Part shown: piece after piece, positions 30,631 to 47,508 of the stretch
Layout of the letters: the number at the start of each line of letters is the position of its first letter
Numbering within the stretch: position 1 is the first letter of the stretch
IMG/VR virus record: IMGVR_UViG_3300028048_000198
Coordinates: 1 to 47,508 of that record
From: a virus
Strand: one strand, 5' to 3'
DNA: 47,508 nt
Program-made: the position numbers and the translations under genes
Notes under the pieces: model-generated
Seen by the model: only the letters and a program-made list of their open reading frames with translations
Told to the model about the DNA's origin: nothing
Databases searched by the model: none

Positions 30631-30712
30631 TGTTTTTATATTAATAACTTTTTTAACTTTTTTATAATTAATTAATACGAACAGTTGTTTGTTTATTCAA
30701 AGTTTATAAAAA

Positions 30713-30748
30713 TGTTATTAATATTATTAATGTTATTAATGTTATAGG
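30713..30748. repeat. Four tandem 9-mers TGTTATTAA (iteron-like)
   Basis: tgttattaa tattattaa tgttattaa tgttatagg. The related GTTAT(T/C)(A/G)A motif recurs in both orientations between 30640 and 31290. Confidence 0.8.
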
Positions 30749-31010
30749 TCAATTATAAAAAAGTTATTAATAAAACATTGATTTTTCCCCATATCTTTGA
30801 TAACTTTCACAAAATAGGTTTTTTATAGTCAATATATAAGTATATTAATACTACTATCTAAACTATTTATATATAATATATAAAAAACACTTTCACGCGT
30901 AAATAAGTCTATTTCGGGAGATTTTAAGGTTTTATTGATAACTTTTTTATTTTTAGATAAAAGGTTAATTATAGTAAATAATAAAAATTATAAAAATTTT
31001 AAAAAAGTTA

Positions 31011-31039
31011 TTGACATTATTTTTCGTTTATGATAAGAT
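31011..31039 (+). promoter_or_regulatory. Early promoter P1 (sigma-A, extended -10)
   Basis: TTGACA-17-TGaTAAGAT preceded by the A-tract attttaaaaaagttat. Confidence 0.7.
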
Positions 31040-31126
31040 TATATTGTCAACAGGACAGAGCACCTAGAAACAAACAACCTAGAAAAAACAAAAATATTAA
31101 AAATTATATAAATTTTAAAAAAGTTA

Positions 31127-31155
31127 TTGACTTTATAAAAATTATATGTTATCAT
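31127..31155 (+). promoter_or_regulatory. Early promoter P2 (sigma-A, extended -10)
   Basis: TTGACT-17-TGtTATCAT with the same upstream block aattttaaaaaagttat. Confidence 0.7.
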
Positions 31156-31283
31156 TAATATGTCAACGAGTTGGTGGCGTGTGTATACGGACTAGTTTAA
31201 TCCTACCAAGGAACTAAGGAAAGCACGAAATTTAAAATTGACAAAATAAAATAATATAAATTTTAAAAAAGTTAAAAAAGTTA

Positions 31284-31312
31284 TTGACATTATAAAATTT
31301 ATATGATACAAT
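31284..31312 (+). promoter_or_regulatory. Early promoter P3 (sigma-A, extended -10)
   Basis: TTGACA-17-TGaTACAAT with the same upstream block aattttaaaaaagtta(aaaaagtta)t. Confidence 0.75.
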
Positions 31313-31319
31313 GTATACA

Positions 31320-31724
31320 ACAACAAACGAAGAGCCAAAAAAAATTAATCGGTTAAACTACACCATAAAAGACAGTAGACAGAGTGACTTCTGTCTAGAT
31401 ATAAAGATTGATATTTGACAAGTACTATAATGTGAAAATAAGCAAACGACATTTAGTCAAGTCGCCGATGCTTGTGAGTAATATATGTAGAGTATAGAAA
31501 CGGGACTTAATAGGAATAACTTTGTATTAGGGCTATGACAGTGATAGAACGCCCTAGGATAAAACCTTTTAAGTATTGCCGTAAACTTTGTAAGCAAGCA
31601 CGGTTTATCAGTGGAAACTGATAAATCTAGGAGCATGAAACGGATCTAATTGGGTGAAGTGTTTCTAGATTTGTTAGTTTCCAAGACTAACAAGTCCATA
31701 GAATAGGTATAGGAGGGATAAAAT
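31320..31724 (+). promoter_or_regulatory. About 400-nt structured, ORF-free 5' leader of the early operon (candidate cis-regulatory or processed RNA)
   Basis: GC is visibly higher than in the flanks. Serial hairpins at 31376-31397, 31528-31556, 31578-31604, 31605-31624, 31623-31672 (12 bp) and 31674-31692, then SD aggaggg. Confidence 0.45.
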
Positions 31725-35233: not shown

Positions 35234-35470
35234 ATGCATGAGCTAGATAATATAATTGTAAATAATAAACTAATTGGAAGAGTTAGATATGTAAAAGATT
35301 GTAAAATGTTAAAAGCAATATTGTTTGATAAAGGTTTTGACTTAACATTACAAGAATGTGAAAAATTATGGTACGATGTTAGTGAAGCAGCTAGTGCGTC
35401 TTGGTTGAATGTATCAGAAGATAATGTAAATGAATTTTTATTTAATACATATTGGGATGAGGAGGATTAA
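35234..35470 (+). CDS. Hypothetical protein (78 aa)
   Basis: SD aggtg. Confidence 0.55.
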   Translation: MHELDNIIVNNKLIGRVRYVKDCKMLKAILFDKGFDLTLQECEKLWYDVSEAASASWLNVSEDNVNEFLFNTYWDEED

Positions 35471-35471
35471 T

Positions 35472-36857
35472 ATGTTAAAGGGTGTACAATTAAGAGATTA
35501 TCAAGAGCAAATACTAAAAGAACTTGGTAGTGTGCCTAGTATTGGTTTATTTATGAAAACTGGTAGTGGGAAAACACTTACAAGTCTAGAAAGATTTACT
35601 AGAAATCCTACAAGTAATCTTTTAGTTATATGCCCTCAAAAAATAGTTACACAATGGTTTGATGAAGTTGAGAAACATACTGATTTGCAAGTTTGTAAAT
35701 ATAATATGTCTTGGAGTTCTACAAAGAAAAATGAAGTTATTTCAAATGTATTTGAGCAACAATATTGTGAAGATGATATGTTAAAAAATAATTGTATAGT
35801 TGTTAATTTCGATATTATAACTAAAATGACATGGACTAATTTAATTGATAGTGACTGGACTATAATTGTTGATGAAAGTCATAAGATTAAAAATATGGGT
35901 ACATCTAGAAGTCCTGTTAAGGTTACTCAAAAGATTTTAGAACTAGGAGAACAAACACCTTACAAAATTATACTTACAGCAACTCCTACTGAAAAAGAAT
36001 ATGGTGGTTATATTGATTTATATAGTCAACTAACATTTCTAGGATACTTAGATATGAGCTATACACTATTCCAAAATAGATATTGCAGAATTGAAAAATT
36101 ACAAGTTCCTGGTATGCCATTTCCAATTAAGAAAATAATAGGCTATAGAATGAACTTAATTGATGAAGAAATTAAACCATTAATAAAACTATGTTGTAGG
36201 TATTATGCTCCAAAATATGGAGATTATGATCCTCAATTACTAAAAATAACAATTCCTAAGGCTAAGAACTATGCTAAAATGTTAGAAGATAGAACTTATC
36301 AAGAAATAACTTTTGACAATGTCAGTGCTTTTAGAATTGGTAAAAAGACACTAATTAGTGGTTGTGTTACTGGTACTGATGAGTATGGTAACAAATATAA
36401 ATATGGAGATAACACAAATAAAAAAGATTGGCTAGAAGAATTCTTGTCAAATACAGATGATATTGTTAGTGTTCTTTATAATTACAATGTTGAAAAAGAT
36501 ATAATCATTGATGTGTGTGAAAAACTTGGTAAAAGTTATATAGTAATCAATGGAGAGATTAAAGATAAACCTGCTGAACTTAAAAAAGAATTTGATGTAT
36601 TAATAGGTCAATATGAAGCTTTTGGAGAGAGCTTAGATGGTCTACAATACAAATGTCATTTAATGGTGTTCTATTCAATGCCAGACAGTTCTAGAGCATA
36701 TAGACAATCACTTGGTAGAATAGATAGAATAGGTCAAACTGAGATGCCTATTTATTATCACTTAGTTATGGAAAGAACTATTGATGAGAAGATTTATGAG
36801 ATGGTTTTAAATAAAGTTGAGTTTAGTGAAAAAGACTTAAACGAATTAACAATATAA
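35472..36857 (+). CDS. SNF2/DEAD-like superfamily-2 helicase
   Basis: Motif I is MKTGSGKTLT, motif II is IIVDESHKIKN and motif VI is QSLGRIDRIGQ. ATG at 35472 follows the SD gaggagga (the track start at 35430 is upstream and overlapping). Confidence 0.85.
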   Translation: MLKGVQLRDYQEQILKELGSVPSIGLFMKTGSGKTLTSLERFTRNPTSNLLVICPQKIVTQWFDEVEKHTDLQVCKYNMSWSSTKKNEVISNVFEQQYCEDDMLKNNCIVVNFDIITKMTWTNLIDSDWTIIVDESHKIKNMGTSRSPVKVTQKILELGEQTPYKIILTATPTEKEYGGYIDLYSQLTFLGYLDMSYTLFQNRYCRIEKLQVPGMPFPIKKIIGYRMNLIDEEIKPLIKLCCRYYAPKYGDYDPQLLKITIPKAKNYAKMLEDRTYQEITFDNVSAFRIGKKTLISGCVTGTDEYGNKYKYGDNTNKKDWLEEFLSNTDDIVSVLYNYNVEKDIIIDVCEKLGKSYIVINGEIKDKPAELKKEFDVLIGQYEAFGESLDGLQYKCHLMVFYSMPDSSRAYRQSLGRIDRIGQTEMPIYYHLVMERTIDEKIYEMVLNKVEFSEKDLNELTI

Positions 36858-42025: not shown

Positions 42026-42040
42026 TAAGGTCAGTTGAAT

Positions 42041-44833
42041 ATGGAATACTTTAAAAAGTATTTTAATGAAGTTGAGGAAAAAGATTGGTTGGCAGAAGAA
42101 GTTAAAGTTAGATGTCCTTTTCATGAGGATACTAACCCTTCTGCATCAATCAATACTATGAAAAATCTATTTCATTGTTGGGTATGTAATGTTGGTTATA
42201 ATGAAGAACAATTTATAGCTAAGATGAACAATATACCAACTACAGAAGCAATCAAATTACTAGATAAATATAATATTAATAATGACTGGGATGTTAATAA
42301 GGGTTCACTATGGTCAGATGATAAGTTCTTAAATAAAGTTAGAGATTTAGGATTATCTGATGAAACAATTAATGATCTTAATCTAGGAACAGTAAAGTTT
42401 AATAATTCAAACAAAAGACTACTAGGAATACCTGTGTTTTACAATAACATTCTTGTAGATGTAAGAAAATATAATTTATTAAAATATGAAGGACTACCAA
42501 AGGTTAGTTCAAATGAAGATGCTGAAAGTGGTTGGCTTATTCCTTATGATACCTTTTTAGAGAGTGATGAAGTATGTTATCTTTTTGAGGGGGAGAAAGA
42601 TATGCTTATTGCTAGAGAACAAGGAATTAATGCATATACATTAACTTGTGGAGCAGGAGCAACTCCTAACTCTAAGATATTAGGTTCATTTAAAGATAAA
42701 GATATAGTACTATGCTATGATAATGATGAAGCAGGTAAAAAAGGTATGGTAAATGTCTTTAAATGCATAAAAGATATAGCAAAAGATGTAAAATATATAA
42801 AGATAGGTGATGTTGTTAAAGAGGAGAAAGAAGATTTCTATGATTATATTACAAAATATAACGGAGATATATTTGAATTTTATTCGCTTGAACAACATCA
42901 TTTTAATTTAGATGAAATTGAAAAGAATGTTAGAATTACAATAAAGGAAGCATTAAACGAGAATAGATTAAGAAAAAGATTAAAAAGTGTTATAACAGTT
43001 ACTAGTGAATTCCAAGATCCTTACTCAGTTCCTACCATTGTAGAGTTTGAGAAAGTTGCTGAAAAAGGTTCTAAAAGTGAAATAATGCTTGAAGGAGAAA
43101 AAAGAAGTTGGTTTCTAGAAGACAAAAATATAGTACAGATGCTAGAACTTATAGAGGCTAATGCCAAAGATGTAGAAATTAAGAATAAGCTTAAGAGCTA
43201 TGTAGGAATACCAAACGGAGAGCCTTTTGTAGAAATAAAAATGAAAGAGCTTAAAACAGTTTATAAAACTACAGTTGTAGATAAAGATATTGATGGTTCT
43301 GCTCAAAGTTTAGACTTATATAGTTTTGAGAGATTAGATGTTGGTGGTCAATATGTTATAGATTATATAATATATCCACATCCTACAAAACATCAAAAAC
43401 TTGTAGCAATATGTTTCAAGTCTATACCAGTACATGATAATAGAAACTATATAACAAACAAAGAAGTGCTTAAACTATTTCAACATGGAGGAACAATAGA
43501 AGAAAGATTAGATTATTTATATCAGAGTGCTAAGCATCATATAGCAAAACACTTGAACTTCAATATATGGTTAATGAGTGATTTAGTTTTTAATTCAATT
43601 CTAGATTTTGACTATGGTGGAAAAATGAGAGGCTGCTTAGATGTATTCTTCTTAGGAGATACACAAGTCGGTAAATCTGAAACAACAGGAGAATTAGTTA
43701 AGTTATATAACTTTGGTCATTTCTTATCACTTAAAACATCAACTACTGTAGGTCTTATTGGTGGTTCTAGTAAGGTTGATGGATCATTTTGTAATACAAT
43801 AGGTTCTATACCTAGACAACATAAAAGACTTGCTGTACTTGAGGAATTTAGTGGTGCTAGACCTGATTTTATTAAGACTATGACAGATATAAGAAGTAGT
43901 AACGAGTTAAGACTTTCTAGAGTTAGTGGAGAACTAATAGTACCTTGTAAATTAAGAATGATAACTATATCAAATCCAGTAAATGATGAGAACGGAAATC
44001 CTAGATTTTTGAATACATTCCCTAATGGTGTTATGCCACTTATGGAGCTTATTAAAAGTGCTGAGGATGTATCAAGATATGATGGTTTTTTACTTATTCC
44101 TAAAGTTGAAAAAAGAATAAATCCATTTGCTTATACATTACAAGGAACTCCTATACCAAAAGAAGCTTATCAAAATAAAATAAATTGGGTAGCAACTAGA
44201 GAAGTTGATAATGTTAAATTTGCAGAAGGTGTAGAAAGTTATATTTGGGAAAAAGCAGAAGAACTTAATCAAATATTTGAGTGTAACTTCCCATTATTCG
44301 GAACTACAACATCTAAGAAACTAGCAAGATTTAGTGTAGCTCTAGCTAGTCTACTTGTTAATGTTGATGAAACTTATGAGAATATAATAGTTACTAAAGA
44401 AATTGTAGATTATATGGTTAAATATCTTACAAGTATTTATGATGACGATGGATTCAAACTAAAAGATTATGCAAATGAATATAGAGCTTATAGTATTTGT
44501 ACTGATGCTGATATTAAAGATTTACAAGACTTATATGCTAGAAATGCAACATTATTTAATTTCTTAAACGGACAAAGCAAGACATCAAGAGCAAACTTAT
44601 CTAGTGTTTCTGGATTAGATAATTCTAAGTTCTTTGCAATATTTAATAAGTTAGTTGCTAGAAAGTTTATTAGATTAAACCTAGATAATGTTTATCCTAC
44701 TGATAAATTTAGAAAAGCATTTAATAAAATTGATAAGAGTTTTACTACTGATACAGGTAGTATGATAAATACAGTAAACGAAACTAATGATAGTGGAGTT
44801 ACATTTATAAATGATTTGGAAGGAGATAAGTAA
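42041..44833 (+). CDS. Primase-helicase fusion: DnaG-type CHC2 zinc finger + TOPRIM + MCM-like AAA+ helicase
   Basis: Zinc finger is CPFHEDTNPSASIN...FHCWVC. TOPRIM is YLFEGEKDMLIA...CYDNDEAGKKG. The MCM-like part has FFLGDTQVGKSE (Walker A), LAVLEEFSG (Walker B), ITISNP (sensor 1) and SRYDGFLLI (SRFD Arg finger). Confidence 0.8.
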   Translation: MEYFKKYFNEVEEKDWLAEEVKVRCPFHEDTNPSASINTMKNLFHCWVCNVGYNEEQFIAKMNNIPTTEAIKLLDKYNINNDWDVNKGSLWSDDKFLNKVRDLGLSDETINDLNLGTVKFNNSNKRLLGIPVFYNNILVDVRKYNLLKYEGLPKVSSNEDAESGWLIPYDTFLESDEVCYLFEGEKDMLIAREQGINAYTLTCGAGATPNSKILGSFKDKDIVLCYDNDEAGKKGMVNVFKCIKDIAKDVKYIKIGDVVKEEKEDFYDYITKYNGDIFEFYSLEQHHFNLDEIEKNVRITIKEALNENRLRKRLKSVITVTSEFQDPYSVPTIVEFEKVAEKGSKSEIMLEGEKRSWFLEDKNIVQMLELIEANAKDVEIKNKLKSYVGIPNGEPFVEIKMKELKTVYKTTVVDKDIDGSAQSLDLYSFERLDVGGQYVIDYIIYPHPTKHQKLVAICFKSIPVHDNRNYITNKEVLKLFQHGGTIEERLDYLYQSAKHHIAKHLNFNIWLMSDLVFNSILDFDYGGKMRGCLDVFFLGDTQVGKSETTGELVKLYNFGHFLSLKTSTTVGLIGGSSKVDGSFCNTIGSIPRQHKRLAVLEEFSGARPDFIKTMTDIRSSNELRLSRVSGELIVPCKLRMITISNPVNDENGNPRFLNTFPNGVMPLMELIKSAEDVSRYDGFLLIPKVEKRINPFAYTLQGTPIPKEAYQNKINWVATREVDNVKFAEGVESYIWEKAEELNQIFECNFPLFGTTTSKKLARFSVALASLLVNVDETYENIIVTKEIVDYMVKYLTSIYDDDGFKLKDYANEYRAYSICTDADIKDLQDLYARNATLFNFLNGQSKTSRANLSSVSGLDNSKFFAIFNKLVARKFIRLNLDNVYPTDKFRKAFNKIDKSFTTDTGSMINTVNETNDSGVTFINDLEGDK

Positions 44834-45330
44834 TGGTATTAGATGAAAAGGAGCTAGAAAAATATAAAACTCATCCTAGAGTTTTAGAAATAAGATTTAT
44901 TTTAATGTTTGATATGTTTGAGAAGGAACTTGGTTACCAACAAGCAACTAAGTCCTTCCAGGCTTTATGTAGTGCGTTTAATTGTAATATGACACTATTA
45001 CAAGCTATTATAAATAGGAGATTTGATATATTAAGAAAGTCAAAAACTAATTTTAGAAGATGGCGACAAGAAGTTGTATTTTCATCCTATGTTTATGGGG
45101 AAAGTATTTATAGAGTTGCTAAATATTACTTTAGAATTAAGCCAGAAGGTATATATGCACAAAAGGAACTCTATGATGTTAACAGATTTTTAACTAATGA
45201 ATGGCTAGATAAACTTGATGATAGTACAATATTGTGTGGAGAATATGCTTATAAAAATGAAGTTGTTAGATTTATGGAAATTATAGATAACATGGCTCTA
45301 ATACTAAAGAAGTGGAAAGGTGATGCTTAA
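44833..45330 (+). CDS. Hypothetical protein (165 aa) between the primase-helicase and polymerase genes
   Basis: TAATG coupling on both sides. Confidence 0.6.
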   Translation: MVLDEKELEKYKTHPRVLEIRFILMFDMFEKELGYQQATKSFQALCSAFNCNMTLLQAIINRRFDILRKSKTNFRRWRQEVVFSSYVYGESIYRVAKYYFRIKPEGIYAQKELYDVNRFLTNEWLDKLDDSTILCGEYAYKNEVVRFMEIIDNMALILKKWKGDA

Positions 45331-46724
45331 TGTTCTTATATCAGAAGTATAAATATAACTATAAACATTTAGATGTACATAATGATGCTGACATATCTTA
45401 TTTACAAGATTTAATACATAAAGCAGATAATGTACAACCTAATTATTTATATTACGATACTGAAACTGATGGATTACATATTATAACATCTAAACCATTC
45501 TTAGTATCATTTGGTTTTAAAAAAGATGATGTAAAAGAAGTTATAACTATGGATTATGATAAGGATATAATGAATTCATTTTGGAAAACAATATCTATAC
45601 AAAAGAATTTGAACAATAATCCAAATTATATAGGTGTAGGAGCACACAATGCTAAATATGATTATCACATGATGGAAAATGGGGGCAGTCCTATTCCAGA
45701 AAATATAGACTTGTTTGATAGTATTACAGTTGCTAGACTTACTGAATATGTTGATGAACACGCAAGTATGAGCCTAGAAACACTTGGTGGTAAATATGTT
45801 GATGAAGAAGCTAAGTTTGCTGGTAAAATTATTAAAGATATTATTAAAAAACTTAATGCTGAAAGAAGAAAACAACTTAGAGAAGATATTATGAACGCAT
45901 TTCCAGATGATGGATTTTTCACTATAACTAAGAGTGGTAAAAAGAAAGCAACAGGTAAACTATCTAAACTTATTGAGAACTATGATAAAACTAGAACACA
46001 GTTCTTAAACGATGATGATCCTTACTTCAAGTTTATTGATGAACACTATAGACCTGCTAGTTATAAAGATGTATATGAAAAAGAACCAGAATTAATGAGA
46101 AGTTATGCTGCTGATGATATTGTTATAGGTATAGAATATCTAGAAAAGGCTATGCCTACATTGTTAAAAGTTGATAAAGACTTAACCGTAACAAAAAGAG
46201 AAGGAAAACTTATTAGGGCTGTTGCTTGGATGGAAGATACAGGACTTAAAGTTGATGTAGATTATGTATTAAATTGTAGAAAGAATATGATAGCTTATAG
46301 AGATTTATTATACTTTGAACTACAAATGTACACAGGCGAAGAGTTCTCAGTAGGACAACATGAATTTATAAAGAAGTTATTATTAGCTAAATATAAAATA
46401 AAAACTGATAAAGCAGATGAAAAAGCACTAAAATATATTAGAGAACATTCTGATAATGAAGAAGTTAAAGATATTTGTTCTAATATACTAGAATTAAGAA
46501 CACTTGATAAATGGATTTCTACTTATGTTGACGGCAAACTTAATGCTGTTGTGAATGGTAGAATATATACAGATATAAATAATAATGGAGCTGTATCTGG
46601 TAGAGTTAGTTGTGATATGCAACAACAACCTAAGGAAGCACTATTTGATAGAGATGGTAATGAGTTATTCCACCCTAGAAGAATGTTTGTTTGTGATGAT
46701 GGTTTCTGTTTAGCATTTTGCGAT
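45330..46724 (+). CDS. Family-A DNA polymerase, exon 1 (3'-5' exonuclease domain and N-terminal part of the polymerase domain up to the motif-A Asp)
   Basis: Exo I is YYDTETDGL, Exo II is NAKYDYHMM and Exo III is YAADD. RRMFVCDDGFCLAFCD matches Taq IRRAFIAEEGWLLVALD. The in-frame stop 3 nt later belongs to the intron. Confidence 0.9.
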
Positions 46725-47508
46725 AAATGATTGTCGCAGTAAAACTCTGTGAATTGCTGGAAACCCCTTAGAGCTTTTAGTACCAAAGTGTAAAAATCTA
46801 AAAGATTGGGCAATCAGCAGCCAAGCCTAGAAATAGGAAGGTTCAACGACTATCGAAAGGATAACGAACCGAGTAGAGTAGGTTTCAAGTGAAACCGAAG
46901 TGCAGAGATATTGACACGAAGTTCCATTTGTGATACCATATAAAAGGTGATAGAAATGGAAGAATATATAAAAAATAATTTTAAAAAATTAACAAAATCT
47001 GAAATGGCTAAAAATCTTGGAGTGTCTTATAATAAAGTAGACTGGTTATGTAGAAAATTAGGACTAAAACATTACAAGTCAGTAAAATATAGTGATTATG
47101 AAATAGAATTTATAAGACATAATTATCCAACTTATGGATCTAAATTTTGTGCAGAAGCACTAAATAGAAGTGAAAATGCCATAAATAAGAAAATAAAGAA
47201 GATGAATTTACAAATAAATTGGAAACACTATTATATAAATACTAATGGTTATCTTGTAAATTGTGAAGATAGAAATAAACCCTATCTAGTTCATAGAAAA
47301 ATTATGGAAGAACATTTAGGTAGGAAACTAAAAGATAATGAAATAGTACACCATAAAGATATGAACAAACTTAATAACGATATAGATAATTTACAAATAG
47401 TGTCAAGAAGTGAACATACTAAATTACATCAAGATTATTTGAAAAAGTGTCAATATAAGATATAGTCTGAACTTATGTGAAAGCATAAGAGAACTAATGG
47501 AAACGATT
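46725..47508 (+). mobile_element. Group I intron (IA2-like), 5' part to the window end (continues 128..144); about 801 nt in total
   Basis: P1 pairs ttgcgaT (exon end) with Gtcgcag (46733-46739), giving a U.G pair at the splice site. The cores agccaagcc and gtgcagaga match the T4 td-type conserved segments. The GC-richer structured sequence at 46725-46945 contains no ORF. Confidence 0.8.
46956..47465 (+). CDS. Intron-encoded HNH homing endonuclease with N-terminal HTH DNA-binding modules
   Basis: HNH motif is VHHKDMNKLNNDIDNLQIVSRSEHTKLH. HTH-like segment is LTKSEMAKNLGVSYNKVDWLCRKLGL. ATG at 46956 lies 6 nt after aaaggtg. Confidence 0.85.
   Translation: MEEYIKNNFKKLTKSEMAKNLGVSYNKVDWLCRKLGLKHYKSVKYSDYEIEFIRHNYPTYGSKFCAEALNRSENAINKKIKKMNLQINWKHYYINTNGYLVNCEDRNKPYLVHRKIMEEHLGRKLKDNEIVHHKDMNKLNNDIDNLQIVSRSEHTKLHQDYLKKCQYKI

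Follow-up and report, generated by a model that had tools for sequence, protein, structure and literature searches.

Domain organization of a primase-helicase fusion protein

The DNA analysed here, IMG/VR virus record IMGVR_UViG_3300028048_000198, is a stretch of 47,508 bp that was studied over its full length (hereafter the window). It is a complete gut-phage genome (direct terminal repeats, completeness 100%) with a G+C content of 29%, in which a structural arm runs leftward and an early/replication arm runs rightward. On the replication arm an open reading frame at 42041..44833 (+ strand) encodes a protein of 930 amino acids, P0001, in which a DnaG-type primase is joined to an MCM-like helicase module. 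Residue numbers below refer to P0001 unless another protein is named. The start codon, ATG 42041, gives the N-terminus MEYFKKYF, consistent with the consensus N-terminus of the family, and an in-frame TTG is also present at 42035. An AlphaFold2 model of the whole chain, built with 48 homologues, had a mean predicted local distance difference test (pLDDT) score of 84.6. Comparisons across the family were based on an alignment (A1) of 50 diverse full-length relatives (22-54% identity) and on the family profile made from it.

The N-terminal third begins with a CHC2 zinc ribbon at residues 21-80 (42101..42280, + strand), which contains C25, H28, C46 and C49 in the arrangement C25-P-F-H28 ... H45-C46-W-V-C49. 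The Pfam model Zn_ribbon_DnaG (PF01807) matched it above the cut-off (E 3e-12, 46.6 bits against 24.9), PDB entry 1d0q was found in a single-sequence search (E 1e-6), and C25, C46 and C49 are kept in at least 90% of the 50 relatives. The ribbon is followed by a DnaG-type RNA-polymerase (primase) core at residues ~100-282 (42338..42886, + strand), assigned by profile and by Pfam, with the TOPRIM domain at 180-256. The motifs of this domain are EGEKD (183-187), YDNDEAG (226-232) and EDFYD (264-268), and Toprim_2 (PF13155) matched with an E of 1e-7 (32.6 bits, cut-off 22.1). Positions 19-303 of the family profile aligned with residues 30-359 of Aquifex DnaG (2au3) at E 1.5e-23, and the T7 gp4 primase was also matched (1nui, 6n7i and 1q57, E 2e-9 to 2e-8, with 1nui at 2e-9).

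Seven residues of the primase part, G184, D227, D229, G232, D265, D268 and K154 (the last in the primase N-subdomain), are invariant across all 50 relatives, and E185 is invariant in the 48 closer ones. The constancy of K154 and of the TOPRIM acidic residues at such low identity argues for selection on catalysis, and the N-terminal third is read here as an active, catalytically intact DnaG-type primase. No Pfam match was obtained in P0001 for the DnaB-binding C-terminal helicase-interaction domain of DnaG, as is expected in a fusion protein with its own MCM-like module directly after the TOPRIM core.

The ATPase in the C-terminal part is an MCM-type AAA+ core with its lid (residues 521-800; 43601..44440, + strand), delimited by profile comparison with the PDB, by the secondary structure of the model and by mapping onto BcMCM, a protein of prophage phBC6A51 considered below. 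It contains Walker A (GDTQVGKS, 539-546, including K545), Walker B (LAVLEEF, 597-603, including E601 and E602), sensor 1 (ITISNP, 641-646, including N645) and the arginine finger R679 within SRYD (678-681), together with an external-hairpin arginine (R530) and a sensor-2-like arginine (R763). K545, E602, N645, R679 and D681 are invariant in the 50 relatives, and R763 is kept in at least 90% of them.

Among the 60 PDB matches listed for the family profile were DnaG and the T7 gp4 primase, and all the others were MCM chains; neither superfamily 3 (SF3) nor DnaB chains occurred in this set. The best MCM match was MCM6 (8q6o_E, E 4.6e-14, profile positions 538-822), and the archaeal entries 3f9v and 6mii were matched at ~2e-11. 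The hidden Markov model alignment with 8q6o_E placed Walker A, the AGL motif, Walker B, the pre-sensor-1 region, sensor 1 (NP), the SRFD-like arginine finger and the sensor-2 region all in register. The Pfam MCM family was matched by 36 of the 50 relatives at E<=1e-3 (best 9e-10), and none of the 50 matched the D5, VirE, DUF927, DUF3987 or DnaB families at the same threshold.

The predicted structure pointed in the same direction. In the AlphaFold2 model two beta-hairpins, at 574-587 before Walker B and at 622-635 before sensor 1, occupy the places of the MCM helix-2 insert and pre-sensor-1 hairpin. The second of these predicted hairpins carries a basic residue, R627, which aligns with R737 of BcMCM (K430 in Sso). 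When the model was compared with the PDB by Foldseek, the top 50 matches were all MCM chains (E 2e-22 to 1e-19) and extended over 550-740 columns, nearly a whole MCM chain, at an identity of ~12-14%; no SF3 or DnaB chain was present among these 50.

Between the primase and the AAA+ core lies a region resembling the MCM N-terminal domain, with an OB (oligonucleotide/oligosaccharide-binding) fold and linker helices (residues 296-520; 42926..43600, + strand). This region was also folded alone (pLDDT 86.5), and the top 50 Foldseek matches in the PDB were again MCM only, including the isolated MCM N-domains 4ywm_A, 3jc6_5 and 8q6o_5/6/7 (E 9.5e-6 to 3e-3). Since these N-domain matches are likewise all MCM, the C-terminal two thirds of P0001 form a whole MCM-like module rather than an MCM-like ATPase alone. 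Downstream of the core, a C-terminal helical bundle (44441..44731, + strand) was recognized from the AlphaFold2 secondary structure (pLDDT ~86-91) and from hhalign comparison, in which it aligns with the end of BcMCM as far as residue 1019 of that protein. Residues 850-886 are predicted to form a helix-helix-strand-strand unit that is winged-helix-like in secondary structure and had no Pfam match, and the tail (906-930; 44756..44830, + strand), with a pLDDT below 50, is probably disordered.

A preliminary description of this DNA, made from its letters alone, had proposed a CHC2 and TOPRIM primase fused to a C-terminal ATPase in one 930-residue chain, which is borne out by the open frame, by PF01807 and PF13155 and by the profile. 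The motifs that it named (GDTQVGKS, LAVLEEF, ITISNP and SRYD) are all present at the positions computed for P0001. Its view that the ATPase follows MCM rather than DnaB or superfamily 4 (SF4) helicases agrees with the non-primase PDB profile matches listed and with the top 50 Foldseek matches, and the grouping that it had named as contrary, an AAA+ core clustering with SF3 or DnaB, did not emerge from the PDB profile search, from Foldseek or from the Pfam scans of the 50 relatives. It had drawn the likeness to MCM from the ATPase motifs; these do match, but the likeness is wider, as the entire MCM-like module is homologous to BcMCM.

Relation to BcMCM and other primase-helicases

BcMCM is encoded by BC1863 of the Bacillus cereus prophage phBC6A51 (NC_004820), annotated as 'MCM domain family protein' and situated just upstream of DNA polymerase I. 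An earlier paper on this prophage protein is reportedly that of McGeoch & Bell 2005. In a BLASTP comparison, residues 289-890 of P0001 aligned with residues 375-1007 of BcMCM (E 2e-24), and hhalign of the family profile against BcMCM gave a probability of 100% and an E of 4e-60 over 610 columns that included the N-domain, the AAA+ core and the C-terminal end. Judged from these alignments, P0001 ~289-900 is a clear relative, that is a direct homologue, of the BcMCM helicase, at an identity of 23%.

BcMCM is the one phage MCM that has been characterized biochemically. This work has demonstrated an ATPase stimulated by single-stranded DNA, 3'->5' helicase activity and nucleotide-dependent hexamers (PMC2715239, PMC3273815); activity was abolished by K653A, and R737A left ~10% of the unwinding (PMC2715239, PMC3273815). 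All five residues mutated in the BcMCM studies have conserved counterparts in P0001: K653 in Walker A corresponds to K545, D711 in Walker B to E601, the arginine finger R782 to R679, R737 of the pre-sensor-1 hairpin to R627, and R638 of the external hairpin to R530.

The two proteins are alike in being primase-helicase fusions and in being encoded just upstream of a family A polymerase gene, but they differ in the type of primase. The N-terminus of BcMCM is an archaeo-eukaryotic primase (AEP; PF01896, E 5e-18), in accordance with the preliminary description, which had stated that the prophage MCMs described so far are generally linked to domains of the primase-polymerase type. No AEP (PF01896) was found in P0001 or in the eight longer relatives scanned, whose N-termini were either DnaG-type or without an AEP match. 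On sequence grounds, P0001 is thus the BcMCM chassis with a DnaG-type primase in place of the archaeo-eukaryotic one. As for the primase of BcMCM itself, Samuels et al. 2009 did not detect primase activity (PMC2715239), and Sanchez-Berrondo et al. 2011 found both primase and polymerase activity (PMC3273815). The phages themselves differ further, phBC6A51 being a prophage whose PolA and superfamily 2 (SF2) helicase have no significant BLASTP similarity to those of the window, so that only the helicase module is demonstrably common to the two.

A typical MCM amino-terminus was described as missing from BcMCM by Samuels et al. 2009 (PMC2715239). In the current study, BcMCM ~375-620 (L003:13175-13912) aligned with the MCM-N-like domain of P0001, which suggests that BcMCM also has an MCM-N-like OB domain. 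Within this domain, in the segment corresponding to P0001 325-365 (43013-43135 in the window), 13 of the 50 relatives have a C...CxxC cluster, which is absent from P0001 and its closer relatives. The matching segment of BcMCM also has cysteines (HCWGRESCKKVHC), so that the two proteins differ in this feature as well.

A maximum-likelihood tree of the helicase module was calculated from family members and BcMCM only; it is unrooted, with midpoint placement for drawing, and BcMCM lies on a long branch. In this tree BcMCM and five DnaG-fused members bearing the Cys cluster formed a group with 100/100 support. With the exception of one member that has just two cysteines, all sampled cluster bearers fell into one 100/100 group, and the MCM-N zinc site therefore seems to have been lost or gained once.

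Archaeal and eukaryotic MCM proteins (SsoMCM/PfuMCM, 3f9v, 6mii and 4r7y; Mcm2-7) share with P0001 the domain order and the fold over almost the whole chain. The motifs are shared too, namely Walker A and B, the helix-2 insert, the pre-sensor-1 hairpin with a basic tip, the sensor 1 Asn, the SRFD-like finger and the sensor-2 Arg. P0001 differs from the cellular proteins in lacking a zinc-binding subdomain, in having EE in Walker B, in its fusion to a primase and in its origin from a bacterial virus, and it would presumably act as a homohexamer without Cdc45/GINS partners.

Three further kinds of primase-helicase are relevant for comparison. T7 gp4 and mitochondrial Twinkle are single-chain primase-helicases with a homologous zinc ribbon and TOPRIM primase, but the motor of gp4 has the RecA fold (SF4), whereas that of P0001 is AAA+ and the strand primed by P0001 would be the excluded one. 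T7 gp4 moves 5'->3' on the lagging-strand template, so that the strand threaded through the ring is the one available to its primase. P4 alpha, with the P4-family primase-helicases, also has its primase placed before the helicase, and its 3'->5' polarity makes it the best functional analogue of P0001 for priming an excluded strand; its motor is SF3, however, with neither the helix-2 insert nor an MCM-like N-domain, and no similarity to P0001 was detected in the helicase part. The DUF3987 helicases of superfamily 6 (SF6) resemble the P0001 family in being MCM-related phage proteins; they are reportedly paired with AEP or DnaG primases, and they have a C-terminal winged helix (PMC4889955). The P0001 family is closer to BcMCM and MCM, as none of the 50 relatives matched DUF3987 at the above threshold, and in a viral fold search one DUF3987 protein appeared, at rank 32, as expected of a distant relative.

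Family distribution and genome context

The preliminary description had held that the combination of domains merits confirmation; it is not a rarity of this phage. When residues 300-930 were used to search 1.84 billion representatives, 1,541 clusters (defined at 50% identity) were obtained at E<=1e-3, nearly all of them ~900-1000 aa long, and family members are also found, under generic names, in phages already sequenced. Among the top 150 representatives, 108 are at least 850 aa long, and every one of these has the DnaG module together with the N-domain and AAA+ core; the DnaG-MCM fusion is fixed in the family. Six representatives of 580-654 aa (P0123, P0179, P0190, P0199, P0234 and P0259) were also seen, with N-domain, AAA+ and C-terminal parts and without the DnaG module. 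These ~600-aa proteins may be stand-alone MCM-like helicases accompanied by a separate primase gene, or they may be truncated gene calls.

Full-length homologues in isolated phages covered 85-96% of P0001 at 22-32% identity. Those of Paenibacillus phages SV21 and API480 are 32% identical to P0001 and are annotated 'DNA primase', and others were found in the Bacillus BSP7 group, in Weizmannia Youna2, and in 36 Microbacterium and two Arthrobacter records, of which those listed are named 'DNA primase/helicase' or 'DNA primase'. Paenibacillus phage SV21 has the identical local gene order of single-stranded DNA-binding protein (SSB), primase-MCM and Pol I. The API480 homologue, gp47, was seen by mass spectrometry and named primase only, and its C-terminal part was not discussed as MCM (PMC6937236).

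A search of the literature found no paper describing a BcMCM-like DnaG fusion family. Divergent SF6 (DUF3987) helicases of phages, either fused to AEP or DnaG primases or encoded next to them, were reported by Kazlauskas et al. 2016, who stated that SF6 helicases have no preferred type of primase (PMC4889955), and the pairing of an SF6 helicase with a DnaG-type primase is therefore not new in principle. The DnaG-MCM family is nevertheless very large, common in nature and barely described. It is possible, and tentatively suggested here, that DnaG-MCM fusions are a main form of MCM in bacterial viruses, essentially undescribed to date, and that the type of primase has been exchanged on a conserved MCM chassis.

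In the window, the stop codon of the P0001 gene and the ATG of the next gene overlap as TAATG. This next gene (44833..45330, + strand) encodes 165 aa, is coupled translationally to the P0001 gene by the overlap and precedes the polymerase gene. PHROG, Pfam and NCBIfam searches with it gave zero matches, and it is a candidate for an accessory replisome factor or loader. It is followed by a family A DNA polymerase gene (45330..46730, + strand; PHROG 17, Pfam DNA_pol_A / DNA_pol_A_exo1) comprising the 3'-5' exonuclease and the N-terminal polymerase part. The C-terminal part of this split polymerase (PF00476 positions 184-379) is found at 142-951, across the terminal repeat, and an HNH endonuclease gene lies between the two parts at 46947-47465. 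An SF2 helicase of the SNF2/DEAD type is encoded at 35430..36857 (+ strand) in the early replication arm (PHROG 62, E 1e-66; Pfam SNF2-rel_dom and ResIII); it is not a helicase of the ring type. This arm further includes an SSB-like and an annealase-like gene as well as nuclease genes. The rest of the complete genome (47.5 kb) gave no DnaB, SF3 or SF4 helicase, and a megablast search with the replication arm in the phage collection was without matches.

The two arms are separated by a divergent promoter region, where AT-rich overlapping repeats with a 9-nt period and GTTATTAAT-like units are found at 30699-30746, and adjoin an 82-nt promoter-like repeat present in three copies at 30970-31324. 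The array at 30699-30746 could be an origin or an array for binding of a regulator.

Probable function of P0001 in phage replication

The above results make it highly probable that P0001 is the replicative primase-helicase of this phage, composed of a DnaG-type primase and a BcMCM-type MCM-like helicase module. The replicative role is assumed since no other ring helicase was found in the genome and since the neighbouring genes are SSB-like, annealase-like, nuclease and polymerase genes. Several observations weigh against this reading. P0001 alone scored 16.6-19.2 bits with the Pfam MCM model PF00493, below the gathering score of 23.3; its single-sequence searches (E 0.0045 for Pfam MCM and 0.094 for MCM7 in the PDB) were too weak, and the family profile was needed for the assignment of the ATPase. 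PF00493, which represents the MCM P-loop domain, moreover exceeded its cut-off in every one of the 14 control genomes (E. coli and B. subtilis among them), for which reason a match to this model alone was rejected as proof, and six-frame matches to it should not be taken as MCM without further evidence. Walker B reads EE in P0001 where MCM has DE. The TM-scores (TMq) of the N-domain (296-520) against MCM are just 0.34-0.49, and this domain lacks zinc-binding cysteines, with no Cys in the segment 325-365; nearly all cellular MCMs keep this zinc site, mutation of which disrupts MCM activity (PMC2715239). The winged-helix label of residues 850-886 is based on secondary structure only, a search beside the P0001 gene revealed neither iterons nor an origin, and polarity, hexamer formation and primase activity are carried over to P0001 from a relative with 23% identity.

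These points have to be considered together with three other explanations. One is that the ATPase is an SF3 helicase (of the P4 alpha or D5 type) or a DnaB/SF4 helicase that resembles MCM in short motifs only, for which the textbook precedent is P4 alpha, a bacterial-type TOPRIM primase N-terminal to an AAA+ (SF3) helicase with a C-terminal winged-helix DNA-binding domain (PMC4889955). PHROG 239, 'DNA primase/helicase', also matches P0001, though just over residues 9-278, which is the primase part. SF3 and DnaB were, as described above, absent from the 60 listed profile matches, the top 50 Foldseek matches and the Pfam scans of the relatives, and the model has both a helix-2 insert and a pre-sensor-1 hairpin, which speaks against SF3. 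These two elements together mark the MCM/MoxR/chelatase clade and not SF3, and this first explanation is considered extremely unlikely. The same clade is the starting point of another possibility, in which the ATPase is a non-processive protein, such as an origin-melting initiator, a loader or a MoxR/Mg-chelatase/ComM-like remodeller, and the fork is unwound by a host helicase or by the SF2 helicase of the phage. Sub-threshold Pfam matches of P0001 alone to AAA_5 and Mg_chelatase, with weak matches in 6 and 14 of the 50 relatives respectively, the matches of PF00493 to bacterial control genomes (presumably via MoxR/Mg-chelatase/ComM-like relatives) and the presence of the SNF2-type gene are in its favour. 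By sequence, however, MCM was the best-matching family, and no other non-primase family occurred among the listed profile and fold matches. In addition, P0001 has the MCM-like N-domain and conserves the DNA-contacting basic residues R627 and R530, its homologue BcMCM unwinds DNA (PMC2715239, PMC3273815), and fusion to a primase is typical of replicative helicases (PMC4889955), all of which leaves a non-processive function with little probability.

The remaining explanation concerns the primase part, which might be a degenerate, non-catalytic DNA-binding or zinc module, with primers supplied by the host primase or by another route. A zinc ribbon by itself could act as a DNA-binding head, and in one of the two studies no primase activity was detected in BcMCM (PMC2715239); it was found in the later study (PMC3273815). 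In P0001 the alignment with 2au3 extends beyond the zinc ribbon to the whole DnaG catalytic core, and D227, D229, D265, D268 and K154 are invariant in the 50 relatives, as is E185 in the 48 closer ones. Loss of catalysis is accordingly regarded as very improbable.

If P0001 is the replicative primase-helicase, its primase third would make RNA primers and six copies of the protein would form a ring around the leading-strand template, as expected from BcMCM and cellular MCM. The ring would move 3'->5', with ATP hydrolysed at the subunit interfaces by K545, E601 and E602 in cis and R679 in trans, and would leave the lagging-strand template outside. A short linker (~283-300) would connect each of the six primase heads to the N-tier, and the heads would prime the excluded strand, with the primers serving the family A polymerase, whose gene is the second one downstream. 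In CMG (Cdc45-MCM-GINS) structures the N-tier leads at the fork, which would place the primases of P0001 where the excluded lagging-strand template emerges. Such a priming geometry would be analogous to that of Pol alpha-primase on CMG and of P4 alpha, and opposite to that of T7 gp4.

In cellular life the division is clean: DnaG works with DnaB in bacteria, and AEP primases work with MCM in archaea and eukaryotes. P0001 joins a bacterial primase and a helicase of the archaeo-eukaryotic type in one chain, and it belongs to a DnaG-MCM family that abounds in phages of Bacillota and Actinomycetota from gut and soil. The present labels 'DNA primase' or 'hypothetical' of several hundred phage proteins can be replaced by primase/MCM-type helicase, and culturable hosts for DnaG-MCM phages are available in Paenibacillus, Bacillus and Microbacterium. 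Since the helicase part of P0001 is homologous to BcMCM, the AEP-MCM and DnaG-MCM proteins constitute a natural domain-swap experiment, which bears on the transfer of the excluded lagging strand from a 3'->5' ring helicase to a primase. In the eukaryotic replisome this problem of excluded-strand priming is met with Pol alpha-primase on the N-tier of CMG. If the proposed reading is true, a helicase of the archaeo-eukaryotic type can couple to either of two unrelated primase classes, and proteins such as P0001 would offer a simple homohexameric model for an N-tier primase that primes the excluded strand.

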